This document shows positions 730 through 6,840 of a DNA stretch of 8,762 bases, one piece after another (position 1 is the first letter of the stretch; each line of letters begins with the position of its first letter). Source of the DNA: a virus. Taxonomy: Duplodnaviria; Heunggongvirae; Uroviricota; Caudoviricetes. The stretch lies in the IMG/VR virus record IMGVR_UViG_2734482780_000010. One strand, 5' to 3'. The translations under genes and the position numbers were made by a program. The notes under the pieces were generated by a model. The model searched no databases, had not been told where the DNA came from, and was given only the letters and a program-made list of their open reading frames with translations.

Positions 730-952
730 AATAAGTCCTCACTATATAAAGATATTCAGTGATGAGATAAATAATCAGTTTATTACGAACGATATTAACG
801 ACCTGCTGCGCGGAGTTTTCCGTCAGGTTCACCGGCAAGAGTCAGTAATTGTCCCTGGTCTTCCTGCAGAATAGTCAGGCGACCACCGCGATTGACATAC
901 ATCGGCGTTTCGGTGGTGTCTTCTTCGGAAATTTTCCCGCGGTTACCGTTCA

Positions 953-1162
953 GTGAATGCAGCGGTGGAGCATCTTCGCGCACTGGAGAAAAAAGGCGTC
1001 ATCACGATAAAGCGTGGCGTGGCCCGGGGCATCACGCTTCATACCGCGGTGAAGGACGACGACAGCGAGGTGGCCGGGATTATCCGCGCACTGCTTGCTG
1101 GTGAGGAAAACGCCAGGCTGCGTGCAGCCCACTGGTTACATGAGAGGGGGCTGAAAGTATGA
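953..1162 (+). pseudogene. LexA-like gene fragment (recognition helix, wing and linker only); probable remnant
   Basis: Translation '...RGYRSVNAAVEHLRALEKKGVITIKRGVARGITL...' matches LexA residues about 36-70 ('[34 protein letters not shown]', 17 of 26 identical in the core). The frame only opens at 896 after a TGA; there is no ATG, the first possible start is GTG 953 with no Shine-Dalgarno. Helices 1-2 and the whole S24 peptidase domain are absent. The stop overlaps the rusA start as ATGA. Confidence 0.5.
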
Positions 1163-1567: not shown

Positions 1568-2365
1568 ATGAATAATCTGATGGTCATTGATGGTATTGAA
1601 GTTCGTCGTGATGCTTATGGGCGTTACAGCCTGAACGATCTGCACAGGGCTGCCGGTTCTCTGGATAAGCATAAGCCTGCATTCTGGCTCCGCAATGAGC
1701 AAACTGAACGTTTAATAAGCGAGTTGCAGATTTGCAACTCGGTCAATATAGAGCCAGTTAACGTTATTCGTGGCGGAAATAACCAGGGGACGTATGTCTG
1801 CAAAGAACTGGTGTATGCCTATGCAATGTGGATCAGCCCGTCATTCCATCTGAAGGTGATCCGTACTTTCGATATGGTAACCAGCGCATCGGAAAAATTA
1901 TCCGGGCAGGCTGCTGACAAGATGCAGGCTGGCGTGATTCTGCTGGACTTTATGCGCCGGGAGTTAAACCTGTCTAACTCTTCAGTGCTTGGTGCCTGTC
2001 AGAAACTCCAGGAGGCTGTTGGCTTACCGAATCTGGCACCGCGCTATGCCATTGATGCTCCTGCTGACGCGCCTGATGGCTCAAGCCGTCCCACGCTGTC
2101 ACTGAGTGCACTGCTGAAGCAGTATGGTATCCGCCTGACAGCTAATCAGGCATATCACCAGATGGTGAAGCTGGGGATCGTCGAGCAGCGCGAACGATAC
2201 AGCCGTACCGCTATTAACAACATCAAAAAATTCTGGTCGCTGACAGCGAAAGGCTGCATGTTCGGCAAGAACATCACCAGTCCCGCAAATCCGCGCGAGA
2301 CGCAGCCGCATTTCTTCGAATCCCGATTCCCTGAGCTGTTAAAGCTGCTCGATACCGTTCATTGA
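1568..2365 (+). CDS. KilA-N domain protein with C-terminal antirepressor-like extension
   Basis: ATG 1568 preceded by a strong SD (AAGAGGAG); the track's GTG 1535 start overlaps rusA and is less likely. The N-terminal ~100 aa ('MNNLMVIDGIEVRRDAYGRYSLNDLHRAAG...GTYVCKELVYAYAMWISPSFHLKVIRTFD') is a typical KilA-N (APSES-like) DNA-binding domain. C-terminal half uncharacterised. Confidence 0.75.
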   Translation: MNNLMVIDGIEVRRDAYGRYSLNDLHRAAGSLDKHKPAFWLRNEQTERLISELQICNSVNIEPVNVIRGGNNQGTYVCKELVYAYAMWISPSFHLKVIRTFDMVTSASEKLSGQAADKMQAGVILLDFMRRELNLSNSSVLGACQKLQEAVGLPNLAPRYAIDAPADAPDGSSRPTLSLSALLKQYGIRLTANQAYHQMVKLGIVEQRERYSRTAINNIKKFWSLTAKGCMFGKNITSPANPRETQPHFFESRFPELLKLLDTVH

Positions 2366-2366
2366 G

Positions 2367-3362
2367 GTGACCGTGAGAGCACTACTGACCCCTGAAATTG
2401 CCCCGCGTATGGGGATCGTATTGTTCAGGCCCGGTTCAGAGCTGATGCCCCTGTTTATGCAGGGGCGTGTACTGCTGGAGCCTGAGCCGGAGCATTATTC
2501 ATCTTTCGCCAGTGGTGCCGTTCCCGCGGCATCACAACCGCTGGCGGATGATCCTGCCGTTCGGGCCGTGTTCCGTAATGAGGCAGTGATTCGTCGTGCT
2601 GGTGGGGTGGAATGTCTTGAAAGCTGGTTACTTCGTGAAAAAGGCTGCCAGTGGCCTCATTCCGACTGGCACAGCGAGAACATGACCACAATGCGACACG
2701 CGCCGGGCGCAATCCGTCTGTGCTGGCACTGCGATAATCAGTTACGTGATCAGTTCACGGAGCGGCTGGAATCAATGGCAACGGATAACTGTGCCCATTG
2801 GGTGTTGTCTGTAGTCCGTCGGGATCTCGATTTTAATGATAACCATGCCGTGACAATGCCGGAACTGTGCTGGTGGCTGGTTCGTAATGACCTGGCGGAT
2901 GCCTTACCGGAAAGCGCAGCCCGTAAGGCACTGAGATTACCGAAGTCTGTTTTGCCGTCTGTCACCCGGGAAAGTGACCTTGTGCCTTCGGTTCCTGCCA
3001 CCAGCATTATCCAGGATAAAGCGAAAAAGGTGCTGGCGCTGAAAGTGGATCCGGAGTCGCCGGAGTCTTTTATGTTACGCCCCAAACGTCGTCGCTGGGT
3101 TAATGAACAGTACACGCGCTGGGTTAAGACGCAGCCGTGTGCATGTTGTGGAAAGCCAGCTGATGATCCGCATCATCTGATAGGCCATGGTCAGGGTGGA
3201 ATGGGTACAAAAGCGCATGACCTTTTTGTGCTGCCTTTGTGCAGAAAACACCACGACGAACTGCATGCGGATACCGTGGCATTTGAAGAGAAGTATGGCT
3301 CCCAGCTGGAGCTGATATTTCGTTTTATCGATCGCGCACTGGCGATTGGTGTGCTGGCCTGA
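2367..3362 (+). CDS. DUF968 family prophage protein (YdfU-like) with C-terminal Cys/His zinc-binding HNH-like motif
   Basis: 331-aa ORF starting 1 nt after the KilA-N stop (GTG 2367; alternatives GTG 2373 with the GAGGTG SD, or ATG 2410). C-terminal '[14 protein letters not shown]...[10 protein letters not shown]' cluster. Family assignment is from memory. Confidence 0.7.
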
Positions 3363-3379
3363 TTTTGTGGAGAAAGTTA

Positions 3380-3763
3380 ATGCGTGATATTCAGATGGTT
3401 CTTGAACGTTGGGGAGCGTGGGCGGCTAATAATCATGAAGATGTGACCTGGTCGTCCATTGCCGCCGGTTTTAAGGGATTAATTCCTTCAAAAGTAAAAT
3501 CTCGCCCGCAATGTTGTGACGATGACGCGATGATCATTTGCGGGTGCATGGCCCGTCTGAAAAAGAACAACAGCGATTTGCACGATTTATTAGTAGATTA
3601 TTATGTAGTCGGTATGACATTCATGTCACTGGCAGGTAAGCATTGCTGCTCTGATGGTTATATCGGGAAAAGGTTACAGAAGGCTGAGGGCATAATTGAA
3701 GGGATGTTAATGGCATTAGATATCCGGTTAGAGATGGATATCGTTGTTAATAACTCTAATTAA
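3380..3763 (+). CDS. quuD: Late-gene antitermination protein Q (QuuD-type)
   Basis: 127-aa ORF beginning '[22 protein letters not shown]...', recognised as the DLP12 QuuD sequence. ATG 3380 with SD GGAGAAAG; the track's upstream start at 3365 is unlikely. Sits immediately upstream of the lysis region. Confidence 0.85.
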
Positions 3764-3796: not shown

Positions 3797-3814
3797 GGGG
3801 CGTTGCAACGCCCC
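3797..3814 (-). terminator. Rho-independent terminator for nmpC/IpeX transcription
   Basis: Perfect 18-bp GC-rich palindrome GGGGCGTTGCAACGCCCC; on the minus strand it is followed by a U-rich tract (ATTTTTAATAATTTTC). The plus-strand flank is A-rich, so it is poor as a plus-strand terminator. Confidence 0.5.
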
Positions 3815-3882
3815 CAAAAATAAAGGGTAATATATAACAGAAGGTTTATATAGTTAGAAGCAAGGTTGTGCTCCTAAAGGAA

Positions 3883-3950
3883 GTGGCTTGAGGGAGCCAC
3901 TTATATGTTGGGGAGGCAACGCCTCCCGCAACATATCTTTTTCGTAATCA
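3883..3950 (+). terminator. Tandem stem-loops; second followed by T5: candidate tR'-like terminator for transcripts leaving Q
   Basis: Hairpin 1 AAGTGGCT-TGAGGG-AGCCACTT (3883-3904). Hairpin 2 ATATGTTGGGGAGGC-AAC-GCCTCCCGCAACATAT (3905-3945) followed by CTTTTT on the plus strand. About 140-190 nt downstream of the Q stop, comparable to the lambda pR'-tR' distance. The same structures lie in the nmpC 3' UTR on the other strand. Confidence 0.4.
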
Positions 3951-3952
3951 GA

Positions 3953-5050
3953 TTAGAACTGGTAAACCAGACCTACAGCAACGATGTCATCAGTGCTTAC
4001 ACCGAGTGCTTTAGTGAAGTCATTTTTGTCAAGCAGGTTGATTTTGTAATCAACGAAAGTAGACATATTTTTGTTGAAGTAATAGGTTGCACCTACATCA
4101 ACATATTTGACTAAGTCCTGATCGCCCCATACTCCAAGATCCTTACCTTTAGATTGCAGGTAAGCAACGGACGGACGCAGACCGAAATCGAACTGATATT
4201 GTGCAACAGCTTCGAAGTTTTGAGCTTTATTAGCAACGAAGTGATCAGCAAATACAGTCATATTCTGGGTTTCAGAATAGGTAGTGGCCAGGTAAATGTT
4301 GTTAGCGTCATATTTCAGACCTGCGGCCCAAACTTCTGCATTTTTACCGGAAGCAAATACTTCAGGAAGAACTTTCCCTGCATTAACTTGAGTGTCGGTA
4401 CGATCAGATTTCGCATAAGTTGCACCGATACCGAATCCTTCGTATTCATAGGTAGCAGAGAAACCGAAGCCATCACCGTTACCTTCGGTGTAGTTATCGA
4501 AATCGCTACGATCGTTTTTGCCTTGGTACTGAGCAGCAAAGTTCAGACCATCAACCAGACCAAAGAAGTCGTTGTTACGATAGGTTGCAACACCAGTGGT
4601 GCGACCAGTCATGAACACATCTGTTTGGGTCCAGGTATCGCCACCGAATTCTGGCAGAACGTCAGTCCACGCACCGATGTCGTATGCTACACCGTAGTTA
4701 CGGCCGTAATCGATTGAGCCGTAGTCACCGAATTTCAGGCCTGCAAATGCAAGACGGGTTTTGTCTTTGGAGGAACCTTGAGATTCAGCGCGGTTGCCTT
4801 TGAATTCATATTCCCACTGACCGAAACCAGTCAGCTGATCGTTGATTTGGGTTTCGCCTTTGAAGCCCAGACGAACATAAGTAGTATCACCATCATCTGC
4901 ATCGTTAGAGGAAAAGTAGTGCTTGGCATTAACTTTCCCGTACAGATCCAGCTTGTTACTGTCTTTATTATAAATTTCAGCTGCCTGAGCAGACATCGCC
5001 ATCAGTACTGATGCAGCTACAGCAGAAATTGCCACTGTTAATTTTTTCAT
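3953..5050 (-). CDS. nmpC: Outer membrane porin, NmpC/OmpD/Lc family (intact)
   Basis: 365-aa ORF with signal peptide '[23 protein letters not shown]|AEIYNK', general porin motifs and C-terminal 'VGLVYQF' ending in Phe. No IS interruption. Lower GC than the flanking phage genes, consistent with a moron. Confidence 0.9.
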
Positions 5051-5638
5051 CGTGAGCCCTTTTTTTTGAACTATTATTAAAAAATGATGTCACTGCGCGA
5101 TAAATATTCATCTAATCAATGTGATTATTTCAAGATGTAAGTTTTAGTTTCTCATTTAATTTGTGAAGTAGATCTCTATTTTTATCTGAACTTTTTCTAT
5201 CGAAACCTATTTATGGCTCTTATTTGAACAAAAATAAATCTATTAGCTAATTTATATTAATGGCTGTTATTTATGGTGGTTCTATAATTCGTCTGTTTAA
5301 TTTAAACCAGCTAAAAATAACACTGGAAATTATTTATTGGTTATTTGTTGAAGTTTTCTTATGTATTTGTGGTGATGTTTTGAACACTCGGTAGCATTCT
5401 CATAAATATCATTCAGTGGTTTACGTACGTAAAAAATTGGTTATGCTGTTAAGAGTGGTTACTTCGTCACACAGCTTAAACCCGCCGTCGAGCTGGTTTT
5501 TCCATTTTTTGAGTCTCGATATTAGCTGATAACTCAATACCTGAGTTATTCACTGACTCGGAGTCAGTTACGTTTCTGCTTTTTTGCGATACGTTGTATT
5601 CCCTCAATTTACACCCGCTTTGTCTGCGAGGTGGGGTT
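5051..5638. promoter_or_regulatory. AT-rich intergenic region: nmpC promoter/leader (minus strand) and the region upstream of the lysis cassette with tandem hairpins
   Basis: About 590 bp, strongly AT-rich, no convincing ORF. Tandem inverted repeats ATAACTCA-ATACC-TGAGTTAT (5529-5549) and ACTGACTC-G-GAGTCAGT (5552-5568), followed by a T-rich tract ending in TTTTTT (5580-5585), then SD GAGGTGGGG before essD. Confidence 0.4.
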
Positions 5639-5854
5639 ATGAAATTCATGGATAAGTTAACAACTGGAGTCGCCTATGGCACCTCAGCAGGTAGTGCCGG
5701 TTACTGGTTTTTACAGCTGCTCGATAAAGTCACTCCCTCACAGTGGGCAGCAATAGGTGTGCTGGGTAGCCTGGTATTTGGCCTGCTGACGTACCTGACA
5801 AACCTTTATTTCAAGATTAAAGAAGATAAGCGCAAGGCTGCGAGAGGTGAATAA
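5639..5854 (+). CDS. essD: Class II holin/pinholin, phage 21 S-type, with dual-start motif
   Basis: 71-aa product '[24 protein letters not shown]...' with two TMDs. Met1 (5639) and Met4 (5648) give the Met-Lys-x-Met dual start of S21 (antiholin S71/holin S68). SD GAGGTGGGG upstream. The track's TTG 5594 start is rejected. Confidence 0.85.
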
Positions 5855-6351
5855 TGCCTCCATCATTACGAAAAGCCGTTGCTGCTGCTATTGGTGGCGG
5901 AGCAATTGCTATAGCATCAGTGTTAATCACTGGCCCAAGTGGTAACGATGGTCTGGAAGGTGTCAGCTACATACCATACAAAGATATTGTTGGTGTATGG
6001 ACTGTATGTCACGGACACACCGGAAAAGACATCATGCTCGGTAAAACGTATACCAAAGCAGAATGCAAAGCACTCTTGAATAAAGACCTTGCCACTGTCG
6101 CCAGACAAATTAACCCGTATATCAAAGTCGATATACCGGAAACAACGCGCGGCGCTCTTTACTCATTCGTTTACAACGTGGGTGCTGGCAATTTTAGAAC
6201 ATCGACGCTTCTTCGCAAAATAAACCAGGGCGATATCAAAGGCGCATGTGATCAGCTGCGTCGCTGGACATACGCTGGCGGTAAGCAATGGAAAGGCCTG
6301 ATGACTCGTCGTGAGATTGAGCGTGAAGTCTGTTTGTGGGGGCAACAGTGA
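5854..6351 (+). CDS. rrrD: SAR endolysin (phage 21 R-type lysozyme)
   Basis: 165 aa; N-terminal Gly/Ala-rich weakly hydrophobic SAR domain '[20 protein letters not shown]' followed by a T4-lysozyme-like domain. Start overlaps the essD stop (TAATG). Confidence 0.9.
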
Positions 6352-6809
6352 GCAGAGTAACCGCGATTATATCCGCTCTGATTATCTGCATCATCGTCAG
6401 CCTGTCATGGGCGGTCAATCATTACCGTGATAACGCAATCGCCTACAAAGTCCAGCGCGACAAAAATGCCAGAGAACTGAAGCTAGCGAACGCGGCAATT
6501 ACTGACATGCAGATGCGTCAGCGTGATGTTGCTGCGCTCGATGCAAAATACACGAAGGAGTTAGCTGATGCGAAAGCTGAAAATGATGCTCTGCGTGATG
6601 ATGTTGCCGCTGGTCGTCGTCGGTTGCACATCAAAGCAGTCTGTCAGTCAGTGCGTGAAGCCACCACGGCCTCCGGCGTGGATAATGCAGCCTCCCCCCG
6701 ACTGGCAGACACCGCTGAACGGGATTATTTCACCCTCAGAGAGAGGCTGATCACTATGCAAAAACAACTGGAAGGAACCCAGAAGTATATTAATGAGCAG
6801 TGCAGATAG
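6348..6809 (+). CDS. rzpD: Rz i-spanin (inner membrane spanin subunit)
   Basis: 153 aa from GTG 6348, overlapping the rrrD stop (GTGA). N-terminal TMD '[18 protein letters not shown]', coiled-coil-rich periplasmic domain. From memory, near-identical to lambda Rz. Confidence 0.85.
6568..6750 (+). CDS. rzoD: Rz1 o-spanin lipoprotein, embedded in the +1 frame of Rz
   Basis: 60-aa ORF wholly inside rzpD in another frame; lipoprotein signal with lipobox 'VVVGC', Pro-rich mature part. Classic embedded Rz/Rz1 architecture. Confidence 0.8.
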
Positions 6810-6834
6810 AGCTGACCATATCGATGGGCAACTC
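6808..6834. terminator. Imperfect inverted repeat between convergent rzpD and borD (degenerate bidirectional terminator)
   Basis: GAGCTGACCAT-ATCG-ATGGGCAACTC; the arms are complementary except for two mismatches. Sits between the stop codons of two convergent genes. Confidence 0.3.
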
Positions 6835-6840
6835 ATGCAA

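Follow-up and report, generated by a model that had tools for sequence, protein, structure and literature searches.

We analysed an 8,762-nucleotide (nt) stretch of tailed-phage DNA (IMG/VR virus record IMGVR_UViG_2734482780_000010; the whole stretch is referred to as the window) at a KilA-N gene and a DUF968 gene that lie between rusA and the gene of the late-gene activator Q (quuD). A 5′-truncated lexA-like open reading frame (ORF), rusA, the KilA-N gene, the DUF968 gene and quuD form one tightly packed operon on the + strand (Table 1). The first-pass annotation of the window had placed two tightly packed genes between rusA and Q in the early-to-late transition operon and regarded them as a candidate accessory module; both ORFs are present, Pfam confirms their domains and the flanking genes, and the pair does lie in the delayed-early operon and is dispensable. 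On balance, and with moderate confidence, we read them as two separate accessory genes of the nin region (delayed-early) rather than as an obligate pair, with the DUF968 gene encoding a putative nuclease and the KilA-N gene an interchangeable, presumptive regulator.

Table 1. Features of the operon between the lexA-like remnant and quuD, in window positions
Feature	Position	Strand	Evidence or remark
DUF968 (YdfU/PdcB-family) gene, 329 amino acids (aa), start GTG 2373	2373..3362	+	Pfam; PHROG 96, 4.6e-176, full length
N-domain zinc cluster C92...H100...C117-W-H-C120, beta-beta-alpha element	2646..2732	+	Predicted local distance difference test score (pLDDT) 80–93
Predicted disordered linker with nearly invariant basic motif	2949..3110	+	pLDDT <50, residues 193–246
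Predicted zinc HNH / His-Me finger core: C256-x-x-C259, H267-H268, D283, C290-R-K-H293-H294, H298	3123..3299	+	
KilA-N protein gene, 265 aa, Roi/antirepressor-class two-domain protein	1568..2365	+	Pfam KilA-N; PHROG 129, 1.1e-128
KilA-N / APSES-like DNA-binding domain, residues 7–105	1586..1882	+	
C-terminal module, residues 111–265	1898..2362	+	Without Pfam match; joined to Rha or Bro-N N-domains in other proteins
LexA-like DNA-binding-domain ORF, 5′-truncated, 69 aa	953..1162	+	LexA_DNA_bind 6.6e-05
rusA, Holliday-junction resolvase, 129 aa	1159..1548	+	RusA 9.5e-15
quuD, Q antiterminator (PF06530), next gene 3′ of DUF968	3380..3763	+	Pfam

Neither gene is a chance ORF, since both are under purifying selection, with ratios of nonsynonymous to synonymous substitution (dN/dS) of 0.07–0.20 against five homologous loci. 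The first codon of the DUF968 gene aligns in 79 homologues as ATG (28), GTG (46) or TTG (5), behind a GGGG/GAGG Shine–Dalgarno sequence, and RefSeq places the start likewise; the alignment fixes the start codon at GTG 2373, not GTG 2367. With the start moved to 2373, the gap that follows the KilA-N stop is 7 nt, so that the tight packing reported in the first-pass annotation stands and its 1-nt gap between stop and start does not. The KilA-N stop codon lies within the DUF968 Shine–Dalgarno sequence TGAGGTG, and the two genes are co-transcribed and probably translationally coupled.

The DUF968 protein belongs to the family of that name (PF06147; E = 3.4e-81, 271.7 bits versus a cut-off of 27.8) and falls over its full length within phrog_96, which is annotated as 'HNH endonuclease'. 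Its HNH core alone also matches HNHc_6 (PF16784; E = 3.2e-06), marginally at 27.3 bits versus 26.6, over hidden Markov model (HMM) positions 123–184 of 204, and the same model is matched by 23/24 diverse DUF968 family members. The HMM searches suggested by the first-pass annotation, for KilA-N, DUF968 and HNH, have thus all returned a match, that to HNHc_6 being the marginal one. The core shows the beta-beta-alpha-metal arrangement, and its motif residues are very highly conserved across 77 diverse homologues: the putative zinc ligands C256, C259 and C290 are each present in 77/77 and H/C293 in 76/77, the catalytic-type residues H268 and D283 are found in 77/77, and H294 and H298 in 76/77 each. 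The one homologue that deviates at positions 294, 298 and 293 is most likely P1 PdcB, where a pairwise alignment shows Q, E and C.

Residues 251–309 of the DUF968 protein align with residues 91–147 of phage P1 Ref (hhalign E = 4.8e-05), and in Smith–Waterman comparison of the core with Ref a z-score of 7.5 is obtained, a score attained by 0/300 shuffles. Ref, a RecA-dependent HNH endonuclease (PDB 3PLW), is the solved structure closest to the DUF968 C-terminus. The nuclease-dead Ref variant H134/153A is altered at two residues, of which H134 is the counterpart of H294 of the window protein in the alignment. A profile of the DUF968 family compared with the PDB gave sub-threshold matches to YbcO and IscB at E of about 0.1 (YbcO, E = 0.097), and sequence searches of the PDB with the KilA-N and DUF968 proteins gave only chance zinc-finger matches. 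These similarities point to the C-terminal ∼80 residues being a zinc-stabilised HNH nuclease of the Ref/Gp16/YbcO type with both its catalytic and its zinc ligands intact, and the protein as a whole is predicted, most likely, to be an active zinc HNH nickase or endonuclease.

Upstream of the core the DUF968 protein contains two further elements. The linker carries a motif that is nearly invariant from Gilliamella to E. coli even though the segment is predicted to be disordered, and this motif is a candidate interaction or DNA-binding peptide. The N-domain (residues 1–190) is modelled at a pLDDT of about 80–93 for residues 60–185 and holds a Cys/His cluster of its own, in which C92 (77/77), H100 (74/77), C117 (77/77) and C/H120 (77/77) are conserved and H109 is found in only 43/77. 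The N-domain was considered as a duplicate of the HNH domain or as a Ref-like domain, and both proposals were rejected on z-scores of −0.2 and 0.5 and on the poor conservation of His109, its candidate catalytic residue. An Orf/NinB-like N-domain of the kind found in Orf–HNH proteins of the HNHc_6 type was also sought in the DUF968 protein and was not found. Since it has no similarity to HNH or Ref domains and His109 is poorly conserved, the N-domain is treated here as a zinc domain without a known fold. The first-pass annotation had taken the two Cys/His clusters together as signs of an HNH-like zinc nuclease; the second cluster bears this out, and the first (CWHC, residues 117–120) is a separate N-terminal zinc site rather than part of one joint nuclease site. 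Among 1.84 billion representative proteins 204 relatives of the N-domain were recovered, all of them N-terminal in proteins of ∼330 aa or in fragments, apart from a match in a 2334-aa protein that was discarded as a repeat-summation artefact. The N-terminal ∼190 residues are, on this distribution, a family-specific zinc domain. The protein is internally mosaic, in that an alternative version of residues 1–115 (window 2373–2720) occurs in the P0039 group, the remainder of the protein being ∼95% identical. Over its full length the DUF968 protein is 26% identical to P1 PdcB (E = 2e-39), and ydfU-type genes, including that of the Qin prophage, match the window gene at the DNA level; its full-length homology assigns the protein to the YdfU/PdcB family.

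The KilA-N protein contains a KilA-N domain at residues 7–105 (PF04383; E = 2.2e-26, 92.2 bits versus a cut-off of 23.8), which has the APSES-like DNA-binding fold, and over its full length the protein falls within phrog_129, annotated as 'transcriptional regulator'. Residues 30–75 of the protein (window ∼1655–1790), inside this domain, form a mosaic segment, hypervariable and rich in indels, between near-identical flanks. The first-pass annotation had described a KilA-N domain followed by an unassigned C-terminal domain, and this description is accurate: residues 111–265 match no Pfam family at E ≤ 1, and the C-terminal half gives no HMM match to ANT/KilAC (PF03374). Comparison of this C-module with Rha+ANT and ORF6N+ANT neighbours by hhalign was not significant, on shallow alignments with which the two ANT-containing sets also missed each other. 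This C-module recurs as a fusion to Rha domains (Klebsiella phages LASTA and SopranoGao, Pseudomonas phage Medea1 and Ruminococcus phages) and to a Bro-N-annotated protein (Pseudomonas phage Alize). Phages that carry it on Rha or Bro-N domains, including those of Pseudomonas and Ruminococcus, gave no DUF968 match. Its distribution among these proteins marks the C-module as a mobile, shuffled module that stands in the place usual for ANT/KilAC. Because an APSES-like N-domain is here combined with a C-module found elsewhere on Rha or Bro-N domains, the KilA-N protein is assigned to the Roi/antirepressor class, and it would most likely be a DNA-binding regulator in its own right.

For a comparison of neighbours, 80 DUF968 loci were collected from a one-genome-per-species collection with the basic linker motif as the search pattern, of which 78 were scored upstream and 73 downstream. 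A Q-type antiterminator gene lies 3′ of DUF968 in 70/73 loci and is drawn from four Pfam families (PF06530, PF03589, PF06323 and DUF1133); rusA intervenes between DUF968 and Q in three of the Q-bearing loci. The upstream side is far more varied. It is occupied by a Rha+ANT gene in 29/78 loci, with its stop overlapping the DUF968 start, by a gene of the KilA-N type in 12/78 at a distance of 7–10 nt (one more lies 550 nt off), by an ORF6N+ANT gene in 5/78, by a small ORF of 92–135 aa in 7/78 and by rusA in at least 6/78; the remainder are other genes, including large ORFs with methyltransferase-like motifs as judged by eye. In a prophage of E. coli 98198, a 93%-identical DUF968 gene lies between the replication genes and Q without rusA or KilA-N. 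The two genes are also widely separated elsewhere, with pdcB adjoining lpa and kilA ∼40 kb away in P1, and with the DUF968 and KilA-N genes ∼20 kb apart in Vibrio H20-group phages. The reverse situation is seen in APSE-2, where a full-length, 38%-identical KilA-N homologue lies among Bro-N and Rha genes without DUF968. In this phage (positions 3501–6194 of the sequence examined, L164), consecutive KilA-N, Bro-N and Rha genes make up a tandem antirepressor-class array between endonuclease and helicase genes. Co-occurrence in both directions, as would be expected of an obligate two-gene module, is therefore not what the loci display, and the discrete, co-inherited module put forward in the first-pass annotation does not hold up. 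DUF968 itself is what stays constant, with Q as the neighbour that it keeps most regularly and KilA-N as one of several interchangeable upstream occupants.

Mosaic joints are present at both borders of DUF968, many phage matches ending at window 3349–3426 and one E. coli match (H43) beginning at ∼2352. Database entries in which KilA-N and DUF968 are fused (P0049, P0066, P0010, P0060 and P0232) were considered as Rosetta-stone evidence and set aside, as they are products of in-frame deletion at four or more different junctions; the number of junctions indicates prophage decay and not domain fusion. P0049 and P0066 have the same deletion junction with different KilA-N variants.

A role for the DUF968 protein may be outlined from these features. 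Its gene is usually the last early gene before that of the late-gene activator Q, and the protein would be made late in the early phase of lytic growth. It would then nick or cleave DNA in recombination or replication intermediates, or host DNA, and may act in association with RecA, as do Ref and Gp16. Alongside RusA, such an activity would favour recombination-dependent replication and the processing of concatemers, or would damage host DNA. The link to RecA is proposed because both characterised relatives of the DUF968 core, Ref and Gp16, work with RecA, and it is offered tentatively, as rather less likely than not for the window protein.

Several observations weigh against the reading of DUF968 as a nuclease gene that is independent of its KilA-N neighbour. 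A literature search found no assay of any protein of the YdfU/PdcB family. The window protein misses the cut-off of RecA_dep_nuc (PF16786; 13.0 versus 26.9 bits), and the model matches 8/24 DUF968 relatives weakly (best E = 0.0032). The AlphaFold2 model is of low confidence over the HNH part (pLDDT 27–76), Foldseek against the PDB returned nothing significant for the protein (best E = 0.85), and the N-domain is without a significant structural neighbour, Foldseek against the PDB included. On the side of gene order, some Roi-class gene fills the slot 5′ of DUF968 in 46/78 loci (59%). DUF968 lies 3′ of close KilA-N relatives in 78/78 IMG/VR contigs, and the KilA-N subfamily also abuts DUF968 in Gilliamella, Serratia, Pantoea and Erwinia genomes and in phage Pm34 (57% identity). 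The synteny comparison suggested by the first-pass annotation accordingly gives a divided answer, association being complete among close KilA-N relatives and restricted to 12/78 loci when viewed from DUF968.

The gene-order observations are the basis of an alternative that we consider unlikely, namely that the two genes constitute a functional two-component unit, in which a Roi-class DNA-binding protein recruits, targets or gates a group-7 His-Me finger nuclease at the early-to-late transition. The coupled 7-nt junction, the frequent Roi-class upstream neighbour and the retention of KilA-N/DUF968 adjacency from 97% down to 24–37% protein identity (Gilliamella, Serratia, Pantoea, Erwinia and phage Pm34) are all in its favour. 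So is the occurrence of Roi directly 5′ of the YbcO gene in HK022 and in 50/78 close IMG/VR relatives, and in LASTA a RecA_dep_nuc gene lies two genes 5′ of a Rha protein with the same C-module. Functional coupling stays in contention through one feature, the recurrent order of a Roi-class gene and then a group-7 nuclease gene. The 78/78 and 50/78 counts are, however, not independent observations, because the IMG/VR scans gave only close relatives (≥89% identity), and adjacency without any interaction can follow from the order in which lambdoid nin regions keep their genes. In about 40% of loci DUF968 stands alone or has rusA or unrelated genes beside it, and it is far from KilA-N genes in P1 and the Vibrio H20-group phages. 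A full-length KilA-N homologue is present in APSE-2 in the absence of DUF968, Pseudomonas and Ruminococcus phages that carry the C-module gave no DUF968 match, and the fusions reflect decay. A broader form of the proposal appears less likely still: a recurrent lambdoid two-gene unit in which a Roi-class protein (KilA-N, Rha or ORF6N with an ANT-like C-module) directs or gates a Ref-like, RecA-linked group-7 nuclease (DUF968/YdfU or YbcO) at the early-to-late switch. If it were true, such a unit would be present in ∼40–70% of E. coli genomes, Stx2 (Shiga toxin 2) prophages included, with a Ref-type function that could modulate the SOS response, induction and antibiotic synergy. The idea of a module is weakened and not refuted by these results, because its refutation called for the absence of a nuclease-like fold together with the absence of conserved co-occurrence, and this combination was not observed.

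Other functions can be envisaged for the pair or for the nuclease alone. A role in prophage defence, superinfection exclusion or anti-defence, which the first-pass annotation had raised, is improbable: the pair is accessory and mosaic, and the KilA-N core weakly matches PDC-S22 in PADLOC (3.5e-06), but that match spans only 40 shared-domain residues and PADLOC-DB 2.0 gave no match for DUF968, RusA or the tested neighbours, leaving no defence signal. The genes are, moreover, placed within a lytic delayed-early operon, where a promoter belonging to them was not detected, unlike lysogen-expressed morons, and a fixed position before Q across many phage lineages fits a function in the lytic cycle. 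It is more improbable again that the HNH protein is a packaging cofactor that aids concatemer cutting by terminase, in the manner of HK97 gp74. HNH proteins are known terminase partners (cited in PMC12817073), DUF968 is the last gene expressed from the early operon, directly before the late genes, and P1 pdcB lies two genes 5′ of pacA/pacB. In the near-identical B4103-1 prophage, on the other hand, the terminase small-subunit gene is ∼5.7 kb 3′ of DUF968 with nine genes between them, including Q, a porin gene, the lysis cassette, bor, ybcV, ybcW and ylcI, so that DUF968 and the terminase gene are not adjacent. HNH proteins of the gp74 type are small, are not known to carry a 190-residue N-domain and are encoded next to terminase genes, all of which counts against the packaging proposal, and the closest characterised relatives of DUF968 by sequence and fold are recombination- or RecA-linked nucleases. 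The least probable of the alternatives is that DUF968 is a selfish, free-standing homing endonuclease gene. Free-standing HNH genes often encode homing endonucleases, and the mosaic boundaries at both ends of the gene could reflect homing; yet its position and orientation are constant across homologues of 24–97% identity, it is under purifying selection, it encodes a large conserved non-nuclease domain, and it occupies one locus in every lineage examined rather than scattered insertion sites.

Both genes are ordinary constituents of E. coli prophages, being present in about 40% of complete genomes. The block from rusA to Q is covered to at least 80% in 1753/5426 complete E. coli genomes, the KilA-N gene alone in 2114/5426 and the window DUF968 allele in 2363/5426, with some match to the latter in 3720. 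The block occurs at 93–97% DNA identity in the named phages SfV, SfII, cdtI, Stx2a and Stx2c converting phages and Kati, and in a protein search SfIV, mEp460 and Ayreon gave 96–97% identity for DUF968 and 67–87% for KilA-N. The pair corresponds to orf44/orf45 of SfV, annotated there as 'unknown', and RefSeq holds thousands of entries near-identical to the window genes; NCBIfam has no model for either protein. Jablonska et al. (2017) united DUF968 and DUF1364/YbcO as His-Me finger group 7, mentioned YdfU by name, gave RusA, Q and an antirepressor as genomic neighbours and suggested that the proteins serve recombination and repair; our hypothesis agrees with theirs at the level of the family. 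Orf–HNH fusions of the DUF968 type, with an Orf/NinB-like N-domain in Gram-positive 'DUF968' proteins, were discussed by Curtis et al. (2014). The window thus contains a known, catalogued and functionally uncharacterised gene pair and not a new kind of system, and the pair had been noticed before.

Four points are added here: the DUF968 core is tied to Ref and Gp16, its conservation having been followed ligand by ligand; the N-domain is a zinc domain specific to the family; the gene holds a near-constant site directly 5′ of a late-gene activator, P1 included; and the Roi-class slot upstream is interchangeable. The YdfU/DUF968 family is among the commonest uncharacterised E. coli prophage genes, and the window allele is carried by Stx2a/Stx2c phages and by Shigella serotype-converting phages. 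Ref in P1 lysogens affects quinolone killing (PMC4713147). If the DUF968 protein is a RecA-linked nuclease like Ref or Gp16, it could affect prophage induction, Shiga-toxin release and quinolone killing, which makes it a modest, testable lead.

The window itself represents a lambdoid prophage of the argU/DLP12-site type that has decayed. It is ∼99% identical to E. coli O27:H7 B4103-1 from position 943 onwards, and 3′ of DUF968 the gene order is quuD, an intact nmpC-like porin gene, essD, rrrD, rzpD, bor, ybcV and ybcW; the immunity and replication region is missing. The lexA-like gene is a remnant (window 836–1162) of 69 aa versus 108 aa in its B4103-1 homologue, with similarity to the intact gene starting near window 943 and with its stop overlapping the rusA start (ATGA). 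With the 5′ end of this gene cut off and the immunity and replication region gone, the operon lacks its native early promoter. On the + strand, no sigma-70-like promoter was detected by a consensus scan either ahead of the operon or inside it; no strong terminator was found within the operon, and Rfam detected no RNA family in the window. In the K-12 prophage DLP12 the order is ybcN, ninE, ybcO, rusA, ylcG and quuD, in agreement with the first-pass statement that ylcG alone fills the slot between rusA and quuD there, and a related small HNH gene, ybcO, is on the opposite side of rusA.

Further features were noted downstream of the operon. The nmpC-like porin gene (365 aa, window 3953–5050, − strand) lies intact between Q and the lysis cassette; the DLP12 copy of nmpC in K-12 is split by IS5. 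Between quuD and the porin gene's 3′ end, the − strand has a strong GC-rich hairpin with a T-run after it (GGGGCGTTGCAACGCCCC ATTTTT, window 3797–3814), which is likely to be the porin-gene terminator. An AT-rich stretch (GC 0.28–0.33, window 5000–5600) separates the porin and holin genes.

The KilA-N protein has its KilA-N domain in common with P1 KilA (46.5% identity over residues 2–101), and it resembles HK022 Roi (Rha+ANT/KilAC, 241–242 aa), P1 KilA and P22 Ant in being a two-domain protein of similar size that combines a DNA-binding N-domain and a C-module. HK022 Roi differs in that its N-domain is Rha, where the window protein has KilA-N, and the C-module of the latter is without a detectable ANT domain. 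Roi is reportedly concerned with inhibition of lytic growth in integration host factor (IHF) mutants. The nin region of HK022 (3877–6835 of the sequence examined, L171), which is largely unannotated in RefSeq, encodes NinB, Roi (Rha+ANT), YbcO (96 aa), RusA and Q; the three functions seen in the window are thereby all present but arranged differently, with Roi directly 5′ of ybcO and rusA. YbcO/DUF1364 (E. coli DLP12, PDB 3G27; also HK022) is a 96-aa single-domain protein encoded 5′ of rusA, unlike the window DUF968 protein. In Klebsiella phage LASTA (L167, 266–2034), a gene two positions 5′ of a Rha protein that carries the C-module of the window KilA-N protein belongs to the Ref family (RecA_dep_nuc, 1.9e-13) and also matches DUF968 weakly.

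The family and two-domain architecture of the DUF968 protein are those of Qin YdfU and P1 PdcB. PdcB, unlike the window protein, is without the HH pair and the CRxHH motif, and owing to this loss it may be inactive or may use other ligands. In P1 (L083, 3273–5085) pdcB lies directly 5′ of the late-promoter activator gene lpa, an order that mirrors that of DUF968 and Q in lambdoid phages, although lpa has its own promoter. In the nin region of lambda, NinG/Rap and Orf are placed much as DUF968 is beside RusA. Ref lacks the folded, zinc-binding 190-residue N-domain, and its basic, unstructured DNA-binding N-segment may find a counterpart in the DUF968 linker; its last metal-ligand histidine is also displaced, H153 lying 19 residues after the position of the HH pair, whereas H298 of the window protein follows after 4 residues. 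The nuclease core also agrees with that of Gp16 of the Staphylococcus aureus phage PhiNM1 (HNHc_6), shown by experiment to be a RecA-interacting nickase (PMC12817073): both are early-expressed phage genes, and the spacing CxxC-x8-H...C-x-x-H-H-x3-H (C145/C148, H157, C181, H184, H185 and H189 in Gp16) is identical in the window DUF968 protein.

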